Assembly (NCBI GenBank): GCA_965214775.1
Contig: OZ243974.1
Location: 2,720,001 to 2,784,000, forward strand
Reading direction: 5' to 3'
DNA length: 64,000 nt
Source of the DNA: Nitrosopumilus sp.
Lineage (GTDB): Archaea; Thermoproteota; Nitrososphaeria; Nitrososphaerales; Nitrosopumilaceae
Shown here: piece by piece, positions 5,707 to 31,298 of the stretch
How positions within the stretch are numbered: the first letter of the stretch is position 1
Layout of the letters: each line of letters opens with the position of its first letter
The notes under the pieces: model-generated
Told to the model about the DNA's origin: nothing
Seen by the model: the letters and a program-made list of their open reading frames with translations, nothing else
Database searches by the model: none
Translations under genes and position numbers: made by a program

Positions 5707-6135
5707 CTAAGCACTACAGCTCTCAAACGAACCTGCCTGACTATCATAATAGGCACAATAACGAACGATCAGGCTGTCAACTCCAACCTCACCTATCACG
5801 CCTCCCAGTCCAGAGGATGACAGATCGATGTCGGCCCAGACAACCTCCCCTGGTGCAATCTGCAGGTCATAAGACAGGTCAGCAGCTCCAACCTCGTTGT
5901 CGCCGTCATAAAACCGCACGTCGGCACGATTCAGAACCGCCTCTACGTTGCCGAGGTTTTCCATACAAATGCTAACACGGAGATCAAGTCCCTCCATGTC
6001 CGCCCCGTAACCGCAATATGCAACGTCGGCAAAAGCCTTGTTCTGTTCGACGTCCGTCGAGATCTGTCCAAGAAGTGCAGACAGAACGCCAATTATGGCA
6101 ACGCCAACAATTACTAGTACTATCTTTTTTCCCAC
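5707..6135 (-). CDS. Membrane-anchored/secreted protein, possibly LEA_2-like beta-sandwich
   Basis: N-terminal hydrophobic helix, acidic beta-rich body with ENLGNV...IAPGE pattern and four Cys. Confidence 0.55.
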   Translation of the reverse strand: MGKKIVLVIVGVAIIGVLSALLGQISTDVEQNKAFADVAYCGYGADMEGLDLRVSICMENLGNVEAVLNRADVRFYDGDNEVGAADLSYDLQIAPGEVVWADIDLSSSGLGGVIGEVGVDSLIVRYCAYYDSQAGSFESCSA

Positions 6136-6221
6136 GGTAACGCTTGCAGAATTTCTATTTAACCACGTTGTTTGTGGCGGGGTTGTCCAAAAAATTTCCT
6201 CAAAATGACCGCTAAGCTTAT

Positions 6222-6710
6222 AGACGCTATATGAAATCTTATCAGTATCCTGTGATATACAATTACCGTTGGGCCTGAGAGTCGATATGATCTTACCATG
6301 TACAAGGGTGTCTTACAGACTGACTCGCAACAGCAGGCGGAAAGCAATGTACCGCGCAGACGGTGAATGGGAGATTCCGCCCGGATCAGGCATTTTGATC
6401 AAAAAGGAGGTGATAACATGATCAACGTAGGAATAGACGTACACAAAAAGACATGCGTTGCAGCAGTAAAGGACGACTCTGGCAAGCTGCTAGAGCGATC
6501 CAAGTTTGAGAACAGCGTTTCTACAACAACGAATTTTGCAACAGACCTCAAGGCACAATACCCTGGACAGCTGTCAATCATGGCAGTATGCGAGTCCACT
6601 GTCACGCAGAGAAAGTATAAGAGGATGCATCGCTTAGCAACATCGTCCTGATTCGGAACACTGAGCTGGCAAGGGTCCACGGTAGGATTAGGTACGATTT
6701 CATATGGGAG
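6222..6710 (+). mobile_element. IS110 copy A, internally deleted (non-autonomous), both ends intact
   Basis: Ends match copies B/C; AG core at 6222-6223 and 6709-6710; recombinase deleted between CEST and TQRKY. Confidence 0.92.
6240..6382 (+). ncRNA. Putative bridge RNA of IS110 copy A (alternative target guides)
   Basis: Same stems as copy B; guides ATGATCT (6287-6293) and CTTACAG (6312-6318) match its own flanks CTTAT-AG-ATCAT; transcript ends not determinable. Confidence 0.7.
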
Positions 6711-6765
6711 ATCATGGGCGTAATACGCCGAAAACAATTTTGATCAGCCGATCCTGGCTATTTCA

Positions 6766-7678
6766 ATGAGTAACAACAGAAAGAACACAGAATACTACCG
6801 ACTCTACGAGCAAAAGCGCAGGCAGGAGAGCCCCCGCAAGAAGAGGGCAAGGAAGAACCTGGGAAAGATCGTGCGCAGGGTGGCCAAGAAGATGGCGGAC
6901 AAAACGGGAATCGATGCCAAACTTGCATGGTCTGCCATACGCATTGCGATCCTCAGGATCGAGAACCACCTGTCCTACAGGATCATGGCCACGCATCTGG
7001 AGACAAATCCGGACGATCTCAGGAGGTGCGGCCTGGACCACACACTCTCCAAGTCCACCATACACAACAGGGTGAAGATGCTCTGGGAAATGGGCAAGGA
7101 CTTTATGGACGAGGTCGTGCTGGCCATGTCAGACGGCGAGCGCATAGCGGACCTGCATGGTGACTCGACGGGGTTTGGCCTCCGCAAGTACAAGAGCTGG
7201 CATCATGCCAAGTACGGGGAGATGACAGGACACGACTTTGCAAAGCTGCACATAGCAGGTGCAGTAGGAGGCAGGATACTGTCATTTGAGGCCACGCCTG
7301 GTACATCGGCCGACTCGCCGGAGTTTGCCCGCATGTTTTCCCGCATTCCAAAGGGAGGATACGGCATAGTGGCGCTGGATTCGGCATACGATTCGTACAA
7401 AAACTGCGAGCTGATTGCAAAAAGCGGCCGCGGACCTGCCATAAAGCCGGCAAAGGGAAACGAAAAGCCTTGGCGGGTTCAGTCCCCGGGCCAAGATGCT
7501 GCAGTGGCTGCGTGACAGGCCAGACGAGTTCTGGCGCGCCTATCACATGAGGAGCCAGGTAGAGGCCCTGTTCTCGGCAATGAAGGAAAGGACTGGATCC
7601 GTCCTGCGCTCAAAGCTGGACGGAACCATTACAGTCGAGCTGTTCGCTCGCGTGTTGTGCTACAACCTTACGGTATAA
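6766..7678 (+). pseudogene. IS5-family DDE transposase, frameshifted near 7470
   Basis: DSTG, ALDSAYDS and YHMRSQVEALFSAMK motifs split over ORFs 6766..7515 and 7496..7678. Confidence 0.82.
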
Positions 7679-8152
7679 TTTTTATCATAATTCCGTACTG
7701 TTGTTGAACCGCAGCACTACCGTAAGGTATGGCCCGCATGGATATTTACGTTGCCTTTTGCGCATGGCCGGCCGAAAATGTCCCGTTCTGCATCTGAATT
7801 TACATACATACGGGGGCAGACTGGCAGATTATGGCAGCCTCTTGGAAATTTTTTGGACAACCCCGTTTGCGGCTCTTTCCACTTCCTCACTTCCGGGCTT
7901 TCATCCAACTGCCAATCCATAATTTGAGGCCCCGTTTTTGACTTGGGTTGATCAGCTGCTGCCACATGTACAGTTAAAAACCAAATATTCTTGTGTCAAA
8001 ATAGGCATCATAATACAATGACAATGCTATAATCCGCCATTTGGTTGACGTACTGAGCATTTGTGTGTCTTAGAAAGAAGGTACAAGAAGGTCTCGCCAC
8101 CACTTGGTAATTAAACACGAACTACATGCAACTATGGCTTTCATGCTAGTCA

Positions 8153-8394: not shown

Positions 8395-9624
8395 TTATTT
8401 TATCTTCTTGTTTAGTTCTGTGATGAATTTTCTTATTTTTGGTTTTGGAATGACTGCGCCACATGCTTTATCGTGTCCTCCACCAGAGCCTCCAAGGTCA
8501 GTTGCCAAAACATTAACAATTTTTCCCAAGTGAACTTTGCAGTCCTTAGAGCCTCTTACAGATACTGCATAGATTCCATGGTCAACACGCTCTTTGTACG
8601 CAATCCCAACGTCTTTGCCAGACAATCCCATTACAAAGTTGACAGCTCCGCTTGCGCCAGAGTCTAGAATTTCCATGTAGCCAAGATTCTTCATTGTTTT
8701 CATTCCATCCTTTACTTTGGCAATCATTTGTGATAGTTTTTCAACCTGGATCTGTGCAAACTCAAACGTGTTTGGAATTTCATGTGGGAATTTTGAATTC
8801 GCAAGCTCCTCTACCAAATACAACAGATAGTCCGGTTCTTTTTGGTGTCCAACGATATTGTAAGTAAGAACAGTTGCACTGATTAGTGCAAATTGCCTGT
8901 CGTAGATTTGAAGCAGTTTTGAGCCAGTTGGACGGTCCTCCATATAATCAGTAATTGCAGCACATGCTGCGACAAATGACGCATGATCATTGAGTTTTGA
9001 TTTGAATGCAGAATAAACTTGGACTGCGGTACATTCATGGATATCATGAATTACTTTGACTTTGAGTCCCTCTAATGCTTTGACAACATTAGGGTCAATG
9101 TCATGGTGGTCAATGTAAGTGACTGCTACTTTGTTTTTTCTCAATGTGGACATAATATTGATAAATTCATCCTGAGTCTTTTTGCTAAGACCCAGATCGC
9201 AAACGTAGAGGGATTTTAGTTTTTCATCTAGTGCTGCCTGACTTAATGCCTCCATCTGCCCCGGATAATCTACAAGAATTGCATCACCACCAAATGCCTG
9301 CCTTACCAAAGCAGCTGAGCTAATTCCGTCTGCGTCTTCCTTGTGAGAGATGCAGATTACTTTGGTGCGCTTTGGTTTTGCAGTTTTTTTAACAGCTTTC
9401 TTTGCAGTTGTCTTTTTTGCTGTCTTTTTGGGTGCTGTCTTTTTGGGTGCTGTCTTTTTGGGTGCTGTCTTTTTGGGTGCTGTCTTTTTGGGTGCTGTCT
9501 TTTTGGGTGCTGTCTTTTTGGGTGCTGTCTTTTTGGGTGCTGTCTTTTTGGGTGCTGTCTTTTTGGGTGGTTTCTTGGCTACTCTTTTGGCAGTTTTTTC
9601 AGTTGTTTTTTTAGATCCTACCAT
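8395..9624 (-). CDS. DHH/DHHA1 phosphoesterase-family protein with Lys-rich histone-H1-like N-terminal tail
   Basis: SHKEDADG, DLG, IDHH and SGGGHDKACG motifs; PKKTA repeats. Confidence 0.88.
   Translation of the reverse strand: MVGSKKTTEKTAKRVAKKPPKKTAPKKTAPKKTAPKKTAPKKTAPKKTAPKKTAPKKTAPKKTAPKKTAKKTTAKKAVKKTAKPKRTKVICISHKEDADGISSAALVRQAFGGDAILVDYPGQMEALSQAALDEKLKSLYVCDLGLSKKTQDEFINIMSTLRKNKVAVTYIDHHDIDPNVVKALEGLKVKVIHDIHECTAVQVYSAFKSKLNDHASFVAACAAITDYMEDRPTGSKLLQIYDRQFALISATVLTYNIVGHQKEPDYLLYLVEELANSKFPHEIPNTFEFAQIQVEKLSQMIAKVKDGMKTMKNLGYMEILDSGASGAVNFVMGLSGKDVGIAYKERVDHGIYAVSVRGSKDCKVHLGKIVNVLATDLGGSGGGHDKACGAVIPKPKIRKFITELNKKIK
9419..9568. repeat. Perfect 15-bp tandem repeat x10 (encodes PKKTA)
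   Basis: GCTGTCTTTTTGGGT repeated ten times. Confidence 0.97.
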
Positions 9625-26416: not shown

Positions 26417-26659
26417 GCCCACATTTTTGTTCAACCCGAAACTGGTGTGTGGCGCCGCGCCGGCGGCATGACGCGATCCCCTGTCATGTGCAATCTAGGA
26501 CGTCTGGGACACGGTGGTCTCCTGATTCGGCAACCGGCATGATTTTCTGGATTCTCCACCACGTTGATCAGGACTGGCGTGGCCGGGACGGATGCGCGGG
26601 TATTTCAGCTTCCGGTTTATTTCGTTGGTAACCATATCAGTAGACGCTATATGAAATCT

Positions 26660-26804
26660 TATCCGTATCCTGTGATATACTATTACTGTTGGGCCTGAGA
26701 GTCGATTGGAACTTACCATGTACAAGGGTGTTCCGTAGACTGACTCACAACAGCAGGCGGAAAGCAATATACCGCGCAGAAGACGGTGAATGGGAGATTC
26801 CGCC
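26660..26804 (+). ncRNA. Putative bridge RNA of IS110 copy B
   Basis: Two stem-internal-loop modules: GAGTC[TGGAACT]ACC..GGT[TCCGTAG]GACTC and GGCGGAA[..]ACCG..CGGT[ATGGGAG]TTCCGCC; guides match target and donor; ends approximate. Confidence 0.72.
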
Positions 26805-26840
26805 CGGATCAGGCATTTTGATCAGAAAGGAGGTGATAAC

Positions 26841-27920
26841 ATGATCAACGTAGGAATAGACGTACACAAAAAGACATGCGTTGCAGCAGTAAAGGATGAC
26901 TCTGGCAAGCTGCTAGAGCGATCCAAGTTTGAGAACAGCGTTTTGGCAACAACGAATTTTGCAACATATCTCAAGGAACAATACCGCGGACAGCTGCCAA
27001 TAAAGGCAGTATGCGAATCCACTGCCAACTACTGGATTATCGTACATGACACGCTTGAGGACTGCGGGATAGACACCGTGCTGGTGCATCCGGCAAAGGT
27101 CAAGGTGATAGCGCACGCCAAGATAAAGGACGACCGCGTGGATGCAAATATACTTGCCGACCTGCTCAGAGCAGACATGCTGCCAGAGTCGTTTGTGCCT
27201 GACAAGCACTATAGGGACCTCAGAATGCTGGGCAGGACCAGAACCGGCAAGACAGCAGAAGCCACCAGGTGCAAGAACAAGATACACGCAATACTTGCAA
27301 AGTATGACTATGATCTGCCCACACACGGCACGTTTACGATTTCTGCCATACAGTACATTCAAGACGGGATAAAGATGTCAGAGATTGACGCGGCAACGGT
27401 GAAGATGTACCTTGATGACATCAAGAGGATACAGGATCAGATAAAGGATCTGGAGCGCAGCATTGCCTCCGTATCCGAAAGCGATCCGAGGGCCAAGACG
27501 ATTATGACCATGCCTGGAATAAGCCATGTCTCTGCACTGACGATAATCTCTGAGATAGTAGATATCAGGAGGTTTGCCACTCCAGAAAAGCTCGTCTCGT
27601 ATGCAGTGCTGACTCCCTCGCGCAGGGACAGCGCAGACAGACACAAAGGAGGCGGCATAACAAAGCAGGGATCCGTGTGGCTGCGCCAAGCCATGGTCAA
27701 CTCGGCCACAGTCGCAGTACGAAACGACCCAAGGCTTGGTTCGATATATGAAAGGATAGGAAAGAGACGTGGATGGCAAAAGGCAAAGATTGCAGTTGCA
27801 AGACACATGCTGGAGATAATCTGGCACATGCTGACAACCGGAGAAGAGTACCGCACTCAGAATAAGACTCTCACGCAGAGAAAGTATATGAGGATGCATC
27901 GCATAGCAACATTGTCCTGA
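26841..27920 (+). CDS. IS110-family DEDD recombinase
   Basis: VGIDVHK, VCES, KDDRVDA, PSRRDSA; RBS AGGAGGTG before ATG 26841; conserved YAGL reads YAVL in this copy. Confidence 0.93.
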   Translation: MINVGIDVHKKTCVAAVKDDSGKLLERSKFENSVLATTNFATYLKEQYRGQLPIKAVCESTANYWIIVHDTLEDCGIDTVLVHPAKVKVIAHAKIKDDRVDANILADLLRADMLPESFVPDKHYRDLRMLGRTRTGKTAEATRCKNKIHAILAKYDYDLPTHGTFTISAIQYIQDGIKMSEIDAATVKMYLDDIKRIQDQIKDLERSIASVSESDPRAKTIMTMPGISHVSALTIISEIVDIRRFATPEKLVSYAVLTPSRRDSADRHKGGGITKQGSVWLRQAMVNSATVAVRNDPRLGSIYERIGKRRGWQKAKIAVARHMLEIIWHMLTTGEEYRTQNKTLTQRKYMRMHRIATLS

Positions 27921-28060
27921 TTCGGAACATCACGCTGGCAAGGGTCCACGGTAGGATTAGGTACGATTTCATATGGGTGTTCCTAGATGTACTTTTGAAG
28001 GCATGATGATTACGTAATTTACCGAGATTTTTTGACCATTACGATCTTAGATCAGGAGGT

Positions 28061-29474: not shown

Positions 29475-29892
29475 CTCCCATATGAAATCGTACCTAATCC
29501 TACCGTGGACCCTTGCCAGCGTGATGTTCCGAATCAGGACAATGTTGCTATGCGATGCATCCTCTTATACTTTCTCTGCGTGAGAGCCTTGTTCTGAGTG
29601 CGGTACTCCTCTCCGGTTGTCAGCATGTGCCAGATTATCTCCAGCATGTGTCTTGCAACTGCAATCTTTGCCTTTTGCCATCCACGTCTCTTTCCTATCC
29701 TTTCATATATCGAACCAAGCCTTGGGTCGTTTCGTACTGCGACTGTGGCCGAGTTGACCATGGCCTGGCGCAGCCACACGGATCCCTGCTTTGTTATGCC
29801 GCCTCCTTTGTGTCTGTCTGCGCTGTCCCTGCGCGAGGGAGTCAGCCCTGCATACGAGACGAGCTTCTCCGGAGTGGCAAACCTCCTGATAT
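29475..29892 (-). mobile_element. IS110 copy D, 418-bp 3' fragment in tandem with copy C
   Basis: Duplicates 29893-30310; starts exactly at an internal AG site of the recombinase gene. Confidence 0.9.
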
Positions 29893-29951
29893 CTCCCATA
29901 TGAAATCGTACCTAATCCTACCGTGGACCCTTGCCAGCGTGATGTTCCGAA

Positions 29952-31031
29952 TCAGGACAATGTTGCTATGCGATGCATCCTCTTATACTTTCTCTGCGTG
30001 AGAGCCTTGTTCTGAGTGCGGTACTCCTCTCCGGTTGTCAGCATGTGCCAGATTATCTCCAGCATGTGTCTTGCAACTGCAATCTTTGCCTTTTGCCATC
30101 CACGTCTCTTTCCTATCCTTTCATATATCGAACCAAGCCTTGGGTCGTTTCGTACTGCGACTGTGGCCGAGTTGACCATGGCCTGGCGCAGCCACACGGA
30201 TCCCTGCTTTGTTATGCCGCCTCCTTTGTGTCTGTCTGCGCTGTCCCTGCGCGAGGGAGTCAGCCCTGCATACGAGACGAGCTTCTCCGGAGTGGCAAAC
30301 CTCCTGATATCTACTATCTCAGAGATTATCGTCAGTGCAATGACATGGCTTATTCCAGGCATGGTCATAATCGTCTTGGCCCTCGTATCGCTTTCGGATA
30401 CAGAGGCAATGCTGCGCTCCAGATCCTTTATCTGATCCTGTATCCTCTTGATGTCATCAAGGTACATCTTCACAGTTGCCGCGTCAATCTCTGACATTTT
30501 TATCCCGTCTTGGATGTGCTGTATGGCAGAAATCGTAAACGTGCTGTGCGTGGGCAGGTCATAGTCATACTTTGCAAGTATGGCGTGTATCTTGTTCTTG
30601 CATCTGGTGGCTTCTGCCGTCTTGCCGGTTCTGGTCCTGCCCAGCATTCTGAGGTCCCTGTAGTGCTTGTCAGGCACAAACGACTCTGGCAGCATGTCTG
30701 CTCTGAGCAGGTCGGCAAGTATATTTGCATCTACGCGGTCGTCCTTTATCTTGGCGTGCGCTATCACCTTGACCTTTGCCGGATGTACCAGCACGGTGTC
30801 TATCCCGCAGTCCTCAAGCGTGTCATGTACGATAATCCAATAGTTGGCAGTGGACTCGCATACTGCCTTTATTGGCAGCTGTCCGCAGTATTGTTCCTTG
30901 AGATATGTTGCAAAATTCGTTGTTGCCAAAACGCTGTTCTCAAACTTGGATCGCTCTAGCAGCTTGCCAGAGTCATCCTTTACTGCTGCAACGCATGTCT
31001 TTTTGTGTACGTCTATTCCTACGTTGATCAT
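29952..31031 (-). CDS. IS110-family DEDD recombinase (intact)
   Basis: Same motifs as copy B with canonical SYAGLTP. Confidence 0.94.
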   Translation of the reverse strand: MINVGIDVHKKTCVAAVKDDSGKLLERSKFENSVLATTNFATYLKEQYCGQLPIKAVCESTANYWIIVHDTLEDCGIDTVLVHPAKVKVIAHAKIKDDRVDANILADLLRADMLPESFVPDKHYRDLRMLGRTRTGKTAEATRCKNKIHAILAKYDYDLPTHSTFTISAIQHIQDGIKMSEIDAATVKMYLDDIKRIQDQIKDLERSIASVSESDTRAKTIMTMPGISHVIALTIISEIVDIRRFATPEKLVSYAGLTPSRRDSADRHKGGGITKQGSVWLRQAMVNSATVAVRNDPRLGSIYERIGKRRGWQKAKIAVARHMLEIIWHMLTTGEEYRTQNKALTQRKYKRMHRIATLS

Positions 31032-31067
31032 GTTATCACCTCCTTTCTGATCAAAATGCCTGATCCG

Positions 31068-31212
31068 GGCGGAATCTCCCATTCACCGTCTTCTGCGCGG
31101 TACATTGCTTTCCGCCTGCTGTTACGAGTCAGTCTACTGAACACCCTTGTACATGGTAAGTTCCGATCGACTCTCAGGCCCAACAGTAATTGTATATCAC
31201 AGGATACAGATA
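31068..31212 (-). ncRNA. Putative bridge RNA of IS110 copy C
   Basis: Minus-strand guides CGGAACT (31159-31165) and TCAGTAG (31134-31140); the latter matches the flank TCAGT-AG 7/7. Confidence 0.72.
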
Positions 31213-31298
31213 AGATTTCATATAGCGTCTACTGATATGGTTACGAATTCTGACAAATTAGGTGCCAACCCCGATGGCAGTACAAGGCAAGGCATTCC

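Follow-up and report, generated by a model that had tools for sequence, protein, structure and literature searches.

A non-autonomous IS110-family element, probably re-targeted and mobilised in trans, inside an IS5-like element of Nitrosopumilus

A 487-bp insertion (one core counted) within an IS5-like element of a Nitrosopumilus sp. genome, called copy A or mini-1 here, is most likely a non-autonomous deletion derivative of an RNA-guided IS110 element of the bridge-RNA or seekRNA type that has been re-targeted and mobilised in trans. Based on the comparison of filled and empty sites, the mini form has evidently moved to at least two unrelated kinds of site. Its own transcript presumably serves as the guide, and a circular intermediate and continued activity of copy A are likewise presumed. 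The window, i.e. the whole stretch of DNA that was analysed, comprises 64,000 nt of the forward strand (contig OZ243974.1 of assembly GCA_965214775.1, positions 2,720,001-2,784,000).

The boundaries that the initial annotation had assigned to copy A are correct, with an AG core at each junction (Table 1). Copies A, B and C have common ends, AG-ACGCTATATGAAATC on the left and GATTTCATATGGG-AG on the right, and AG precedes all 20 genomic left ends with an exact ACGCTATATGAAATC. The two arms of the sub-terminal inverted repeat are 10 bp long and perfect in copy A, and they covary in a relative genome (G002), where they read CCATGTGTT/AACACATGG. As the initial annotation had also noted, copy A resembles copies B and C at both ends and in its RNA scaffold, and its recombinase is deleted. 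The deletion junction lies near 6601|6602, and what is missing are positions ~400-1243 in the coordinates of the copy-B query (this query begins at window position 26625, 16 bases left of the element). The DEDD (RuvC-like) and Tnp-domain recombinase is present in the full-length copies B, C and g2030k and absent from copy A, where the remaining stump matches PF01548 over profile positions 1-47 of 155 at 26 bits, below the cut-off of 29. Since only this 77-aa stump is kept and the full-length relatives have the whole recombinase, copy A is a derivative of the IS110 family and not an autonomous member of it.

Table 1. Coordinates of copy A, its parts, its host element and the full-length copies in the window.
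Feature	Position	Strand	Description
Host IS5-like element	6178..7865	+	1688 bp; 22-bp perfect terminal inverted repeats 6178-6199 and 7844-7865
Copy A (mini-1)	6222..6710	+	Non-autonomous IS110-family element with an internal deletion; AG core at both junctions
Left core AG	6222..6223	+	Left target/left end junction
Left sub-terminal inverted repeat	6229..6238	+	ATATGAAATC; exact reverse complement of 6696-6705
Target-binding stem-loop	6279..6326	+	Outer stem GAGTCG/TGACTC, internal loop, inner stem TACC/GGTG
Right-target guide	6287..6293	+	5' loop strand ATGATCT; exact reverse complement of AG-ATCAT
Left-target guide	6312..6318	+	3' loop strand CTTACAG; same sense as CTTAT-AG
Donor-binding stem-loop	6336..6381	+	Outer stem GGCGGAA/TTCCGCC, inner stem TACCG/CGGTG
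Recombinase stump	6418..6651	+	In-frame, 77 aa; first ~61 residues fused to last ~16
Right sub-terminal inverted repeat	6696..6705	+	GATTTCATAT
Right core AG	6709..6710	+	
Copy B	26642..27979	+	Full-length; intact 359-aa recombinase 26841-27920; candidate enzyme source
Copy C	29478..31230	-	Full-length; intact 359-aa recombinase, then tandem partial 3' copy

A 196-nt leader, which precedes the recombinase gene, contains the RNA gene; the right end is short (~58 nt). An alignment of 19 leaders, 16 from the Nitrosopumilus genome (G000) and three from G002, whose elements are ~67% identical to those of G000, supports a six-helix structure that is 93.4% paired across the 19 sequences; 0 of 500 shuffles reached this value. 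Sliding the helix partners lowers pairing to 29-46%, a control that is partly circular because the tested structure came from these same sequences. At six pairs of the leader helices, changes on both sides are found among the 19 sequences. Both helices of the target-binding stem-loop are paired in 100% of cells of this alignment, including one AU-to-GC compensatory pair, and the stem-loop also appears in the single-sequence fold. The 3' strand of the donor-binding stem-loop, ATGGGAG (6367-6373), has the same sequence as the right end with its core, both in G000 and in G002. For a right-donor guide, the 5' strand of the second loop was compared by eye with the left end, and complementarity was limited to 3-4-nt matches in G000 and G002. 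An RNAalifold consensus fold recovered the target stem-loop and drew the second stem-loop differently; it was set aside for the single-sequence fold, with pair counts as the test. Rfam at gathering scores over the whole window gave no match to a bridge-RNA family, and the sole match of an Rfam search with relaxed E-values on 6150-6780 was attributed to chance. A scan of metagenomes for the loop-scaffold pattern found nothing.

The strands of the target loop fit the flanks of copy A closely, as the initial annotation had described. The right-target guide agrees with the right flank AG-ATCAT (6709-6715) at 7/7 positions and the left-target guide with the left flank CTTAT-AG (6217-6223) at 6/7, with one mismatch; the two sister mini-1 copies carry CTTATAG as left guide and agree at 7/7. 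The chance of at least 9 of 10 non-core guide positions matching is ~3e-5. In copies B and C the loop strands are TGGAACT/TCCGTAG and CGGAACT/TCAGTAG, respectively, and the differences from copy A are concentrated in these strands, a clustering that had been proposed from the sequence alone and is borne out statistically. Copy A differs from B in 17 of 205 columns, eight of them within the ten non-core loop columns (hypergeometric p=1.5e-8), and from C in 15 columns, again with eight in the non-core loop (p=4e-9). The four helices flanking the loops are untouched by all nine non-loop differences between A and B. Among 15 copies, the mean pairwise diversity is 0.468 in the loop columns vs 0.046 elsewhere.

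The host of copy A is most similar to IS5 models, which are the best NCBIfam matches of its DDE transposase, yet below their cut-offs, and copy A sits 44 bp in from its left terminus. Genome-wide, four copies of the IS5-like element were found to be empty, and each shows the arrangement that the initial annotation had predicted for an unoccupied site, AAGCTTAT-AG-ATCATGGGCG, i.e. GCTTAT-AG-ATCATG, followed by GGCG in three of the four. An empty site has one AG and a filled site has one at each junction, and the insertion of copy A was therefore precise. A second host repeat of mini-1 gives a similar picture, with five empty copies that read TCTTAT-AG-ATCGGGTGG (TCTTAT-AG-ATCGGG). Across four target families the empty sites have a single AG, and no other duplication is seen. 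The host transposase is spread over two overlapping ORFs, 6766-7515 (249 aa) and 7496-7678 (60 aa), which reflects either a frameshift or programmed frameshifting.

Correspondence between guides and flanks extends over the genome. Seventeen copies in G000 have both loop strands and a left end, and with the three of G002 the set comprises 20 copies; a guide was counted as tracking when at least 4 of 5 non-core bases agree with the flank. Tracking was seen for 18 of the 20 left guides and, among the 12 copies with a right junction, for 10 right guides. In permutations over distinct combinations, left guides reached 62 of 75 matches against a mean of 33.5 (15 combinations, p<1e-5) and right guides 35 of 45 against 24.8 (nine combinations, p=3e-4). 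The left guides of the three G002 copies all differ, and each agrees with the flank of its copy at 7/7; their right guide matches 8/8 in one copy and 7/8 in another. The proposal that loop sequences follow their flanks, on which the initial annotation had rested its reading, stands for the majority of copies and fails for a minority. The left guide of g2169k, CTTATAG, lies in a TCAGT-AG flank (1/5), that of the diverged copy g1690k agrees at 2/5, and the right guides of g2634k and g2831k agree at 2/5 and 3/5. Two fragments with identical flanks in another genome (L032/L034) carry CGGAACT/TTTATAG beside a TCAGT-AG flank, which their left guide does not fit. Such copies may reflect trans guidance, recombination between copies or half-site events. 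Hybrid loops, in which a B-type right guide is combined with an A-type or G1-type left guide, were observed at ~1129864 and ~2169385 of G000 and in L032/L034, and in two of these hybrid-loop copies the adjoining TCAGT-AG flank disagrees with the copy's own left guide. These cases point to reassortment among copies, or to a guide RNA that came from a different copy.

Three intact 359-aa recombinase genes exist in the genome, those of B, C and g2030k. The B protein has the domains PF01548 and PF02371, scores 245.5 bits against the model NF033542 'IS110 family RNA-guided transposase' (cut-off 140), and is similar to the transposases of IS621 and ISCro4 in the PDB (E about 1e-11). The full-length copies agree with mini-1 in the donor loop and in the ends. 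With their ORFs intact as well, they could plausibly provide the enzyme in trans.

Besides copy A, mini-1 comprises g2784515 and g2831780; the three are ~98-99% identical, have the common deletion junction CCACTG|TCACGC and differ at 0-2 positions of the RNA scaffold. Over the shared parts they are ~92% identical to the present full-length copies; mini-1 therefore stems from another lineage, of which truncated copies are all that is left of the autonomous form. The scaffold nearest to that of copy A belongs to such a truncated longer copy, g1129k (2 of 179 positions differ), in which the recombinase gene is kept to query position 796. Its loops, TGGAACT/CTTACAG, combine the left guide of A with a B-type right guide, a mix that points to reassorted loop strands or to stepwise change. 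Movement of the mini copies may date from a time when the lineage that is truncated now was still alive.

A second family, mini-2 (~480 bp, four copies), has the deletion junction ATGATCAAC|TCGGCC and two guide pairs, GTGATCT/TTTATAG and TTAATCT/CAAACAG, each of which fits its own flank. Its deletion is flanked by direct repeats of 9-10 nt and might have arisen recurrently between them. The deletions of mini-1 and mini-2 both preserve the reading frame and the natural stop. Counted from the recombinase's own ATG, the mini-2 ORF has ~74 aa, composed of the first 3 residues and the C-terminal ~71; the ORF at L024 296-521 is listed as 91 aa, with the listing beginning 17 residues further upstream. 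Retention of the frame in both deletion forms may be chance (1 in 9), or a short peptide, or else translation that runs through the end, may have been selected for. In the right-end part of mini-2, inserts of ~1-1.25 kb were noted near ~1240-1282 of the copy-B query, with two copies in this genome and one elsewhere (L024 877-1860, L025, L033). The L024 insert contains a 327-aa ORF without family assignment, so that nesting is three deep, an IS in a mini-IS110 in an IS5-like element.

At least five guide specificities were distinguished, each for a different multicopy repeat, and the suggestion that the specificities in the window point at other mobile elements holds for all five seen. TCAGT-AG-TTCC, with 26 sites, is the tip of the terminal inverted repeats in several IS families. 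The target GGTTTAT-AG-ATCTCC has 7 empty and 3 filled sites, and CAAAC-AG-ATTA about 9 empty and 3 filled. CTTAT-AG-ATC has 23 sites, of which one alone is in unique DNA. Seventeen perfect 12-mer sites, CTTATAGATCAT, are still empty (4 in IS5-like host copies and 13 in a related IS), and present activity is therefore probably low.

Copy A retains what a donor needs, namely both ends with the 10-bp inverted repeats and the AG core, and in addition the whole upstream RNA gene. In the mechanism proposed from these data, its guides specify CTTAT-AG-ATCAT, just inside the left end of the IS5-like element, where copy A was inserted by conservative recombination at the AG core, with the recombinase supplied in trans by one of the three full-length copies. 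Two mini-1 copies occupy the same site in two IS5-like hosts, and the third lies in an unrelated repeat whose flanks share just CTTAT-AG-ATC with the IS5-like site. As the same junction is found in an unrelated repeat with five empty copies, the deleted form itself has evidently transposed. Mini-1 has no transposase, the ends of its partner occur in the same genome and its copies are at different sites, as in MITE-like elements. Mobilisation in trans, which the initial annotation had offered as an inference, gains support from three copies with one junction, one of them in an unrelated repeat, and from the three intact recombinase genes. Among the matches listed for region 5800-7100 (contigs from four runs in four studies, which break at repeats), none was a circle junction or a joint skipping 6224-6710; the loose contig ends over this region, again among the matches listed, are accounted for by further copies in the genome and by IS5-like elements that are empty.

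Alternatively, the mini form could have moved under the guidance of an RNA from a lost autonomous sibling, with its own RNA gene as a passenger. Guide RNA has been found to act in trans experimentally in the available texts of PMC11208160 and PMC11187229, truncated relics of other lineages with related guides exist (g1129k and g1252k, the latter with GTGATCT/CTTATAG and a recombinase gene kept to query position 587), and a few copies occupy sites that fit the guide of another lineage (g2169k and the fragments in another genome). This explanation is nevertheless unlikely: no G000 copy longer than the mini form has the exact pair ATGATCT/CTTAYAG, the RNA scaffold is intact in all three mini-1 copies, and the copy-specific match of guide and flank over 20 copies fits a preference for the element's own RNA.

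The sequences of the hosts bear on a second alternative. Identity of the host of copy A is 98.6% and 98.4% with two empty copies and 97.75% with the other filled host. That copy A is a dead relic whose deletion arose in place, with the extra copies produced by transposition of the IS5-like host or by segmental duplication, is highly improbable, for although two of the three mini-1 copies are in copies of the same host, the divergence of the mini copies (8/488) is similar to that of the hosts (26/1154), and IS110-type excision is precise, so that empty hosts could be secondary, the third copy has an identical junction in an unrelated repeat with five empty copies and a clean AG-bounded insertion, and neither filled host is the closest relative of the other.

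Re-targeted, trans-mobilised mini-1 can be compared with several known systems. Pairing of the guide to both target strands around the core is described for bridge RNA (available text of PMC11208160). According to the same text (structures 8WT6 and others), IS621 of the IS110 group has, like the elements here, a recombinase with DEDD and Tnp domains, an RNA gene upstream of it, and two stem-loops with internal loops, one of them fitting the target; the other fits the element's own joined ends in IS621, and of these the right end with the core is matched here. Its guides overlap at a 2-nt core that is found at both junctions, and a repeated sequence serves as target. Its core is CT and not AG, and its sub-terminal repeats measure 2-3 bp against 10 bp here; unlike IS621, the elements described here have an archaeal host, and copy A is without a recombinase. 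Long sub-terminal inverted repeats are rather a feature of the IS1111 group and seekRNA elements (ISEc11, ISKpn4 and ISPa11 in the available text of PMC11187229), and the 10 bp found here fall within the 7-17 bp given for that group in the portion of PMC11208160 at hand. The order of guides known from IS1111, with the complement of the top strand 5' of the match to the bottom strand, is also found here, whereas the RNA gene lies downstream of the recombinase gene in IS1111 and upstream here, as in the IS110 group (both points after the available text of PMC11187229). Compared with the published texts, the architecture is mixed as judged from sequence, with IS1111-like guide order and inverted repeats and an upstream RNA gene.

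RNA-guided targeting, natural re-programming and trans mobilisation of a mini IS are already published. Natural re-programming between relatives is described in the accessible parts of PMC11187229 and PMC11208160, and a mini IS has been moved experimentally with enzyme and RNA supplied in trans (accessible part of PMC11187229); that mini IS is man-made, whereas mini-1 and mini-2 are natural. No published natural guide-bearing mini-element was found in a search of article texts, and the nearest is MITEPpu9/ssr9 of Pseudomonas putida, a short non-autonomous element with IS110-family-like ends and several copies for which a trans transposase has been proposed. In contrast to mini-1, it is bacterial and carries the regulatory sRNA Ssr9 and not a guide RNA, and the available text of PMC12288879, from which this account is taken, describes no distinct target specificity for it. 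IS110 and IS1111 elements that prefer the end of another mobile element are bacterial and autonomous and have one specificity, against at least five in one genome here. Apparently new are the natural guide-bearing mini-elements, the archaeal host and the mixed architecture.

Engineering is under way to turn bridge and seek RNA recombinases into programmable tools for genome writing, and this genome represents a natural experiment in which the gene for a guide RNA can be maintained and can spread although its enzyme is lost. The target loops change and the protein-binding scaffold stays fixed, with the ten loop positions at ~10x the diversity of the remaining leader. Related guides hop between similar sites, such as TTTAT-AG-ATCTC and CTTAT-AG-ATCAT, which are a few bases apart. 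For archaeal genome biology, these are mobile elements specialised in landing inside other mobile elements. A broader reading is a real possibility but is offered tentatively as a whole: the mini-elements would be guide-only parasites that consist of donor ends and their own programmable guide RNA and borrow the enzyme of full-length copies; their loops would have diversified by single-base steps and strand reassortment, so that the ends of rival mobile elements were colonised one after another in a single archaeal genome; and they would represent a third architecture in which the DNA of the left guide is a half-site for self-insertion and self-truncation.

Three structures have a right end or a truncation exactly at AG after a left-target-like sequence. 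In the recombinase gene of copy C, a right end occurs at the internal gATAGT-AG-ATATCAGG. The tandem partial copy of C, with its junction near 29895/29894, shows a first right end-AG-ATATCAGGAGG (recombinase-internal) and then a second right end; it looks as if one copy had inserted at a half-matching site within another and a homologous deletion had then occurred. In the mini-2 copy L024 (G000 ~2788411), the right end is joined as AG-ACTGACTCG to DNA of a second copy, directly behind that copy's left guide. In L028 (g1348582), the left end breaks off exactly behind its own guide TCAGTAG, where the target repeat TTCCGATTG takes over. The DNA encoding the left guide thus appears from its junctions to behave as a pseudo-target. 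Half-match recombination of IS621 has been reported (bioRxiv 10.64898/2026.08.31.748434, available text), and the three AG-junction structures fit it; junctions at left-guide DNA, which fit the off-target recombination at half matches recently described in vitro, make the costs visible.

Further oddities were observed around other copies. Copies B, C and g2030k have 14 extra common bases, GTAACCATATCAGT, to the left of AG, with unrelated sequence beyond (26628-26641, 31231-31244 and G000 2030270-2030283); this extension is absent from A and all other copies. Transduction or carry-over of flanking sequence was considered as its source, and trials with various cores gave no consistent model. At G000 ~1845234 (minus strand), a sequence resembling joined ends, CATATGGG-AG-ACGC followed by ATATGA, has one T missing and lies in otherwise unrelated DNA. 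About 0.02 such joined-end 14-mers are expected by chance, and the sequence could be a footprint or a donor mimic.

Elsewhere in the window, eleven 15-nt tandem repeats at 9373-9606, within an ORF on the minus strand (8395-9624), encode (KKTAP)n at the N-terminus of a 409-aa protein. Long inverted repeats that are 100% identical, 25310-25911/54039-54640 and 24770-25118/55938-56286, lie ~28-31 kb apart; they probably represent a further mobile element, with one copy on each side of the stretch containing B and C.
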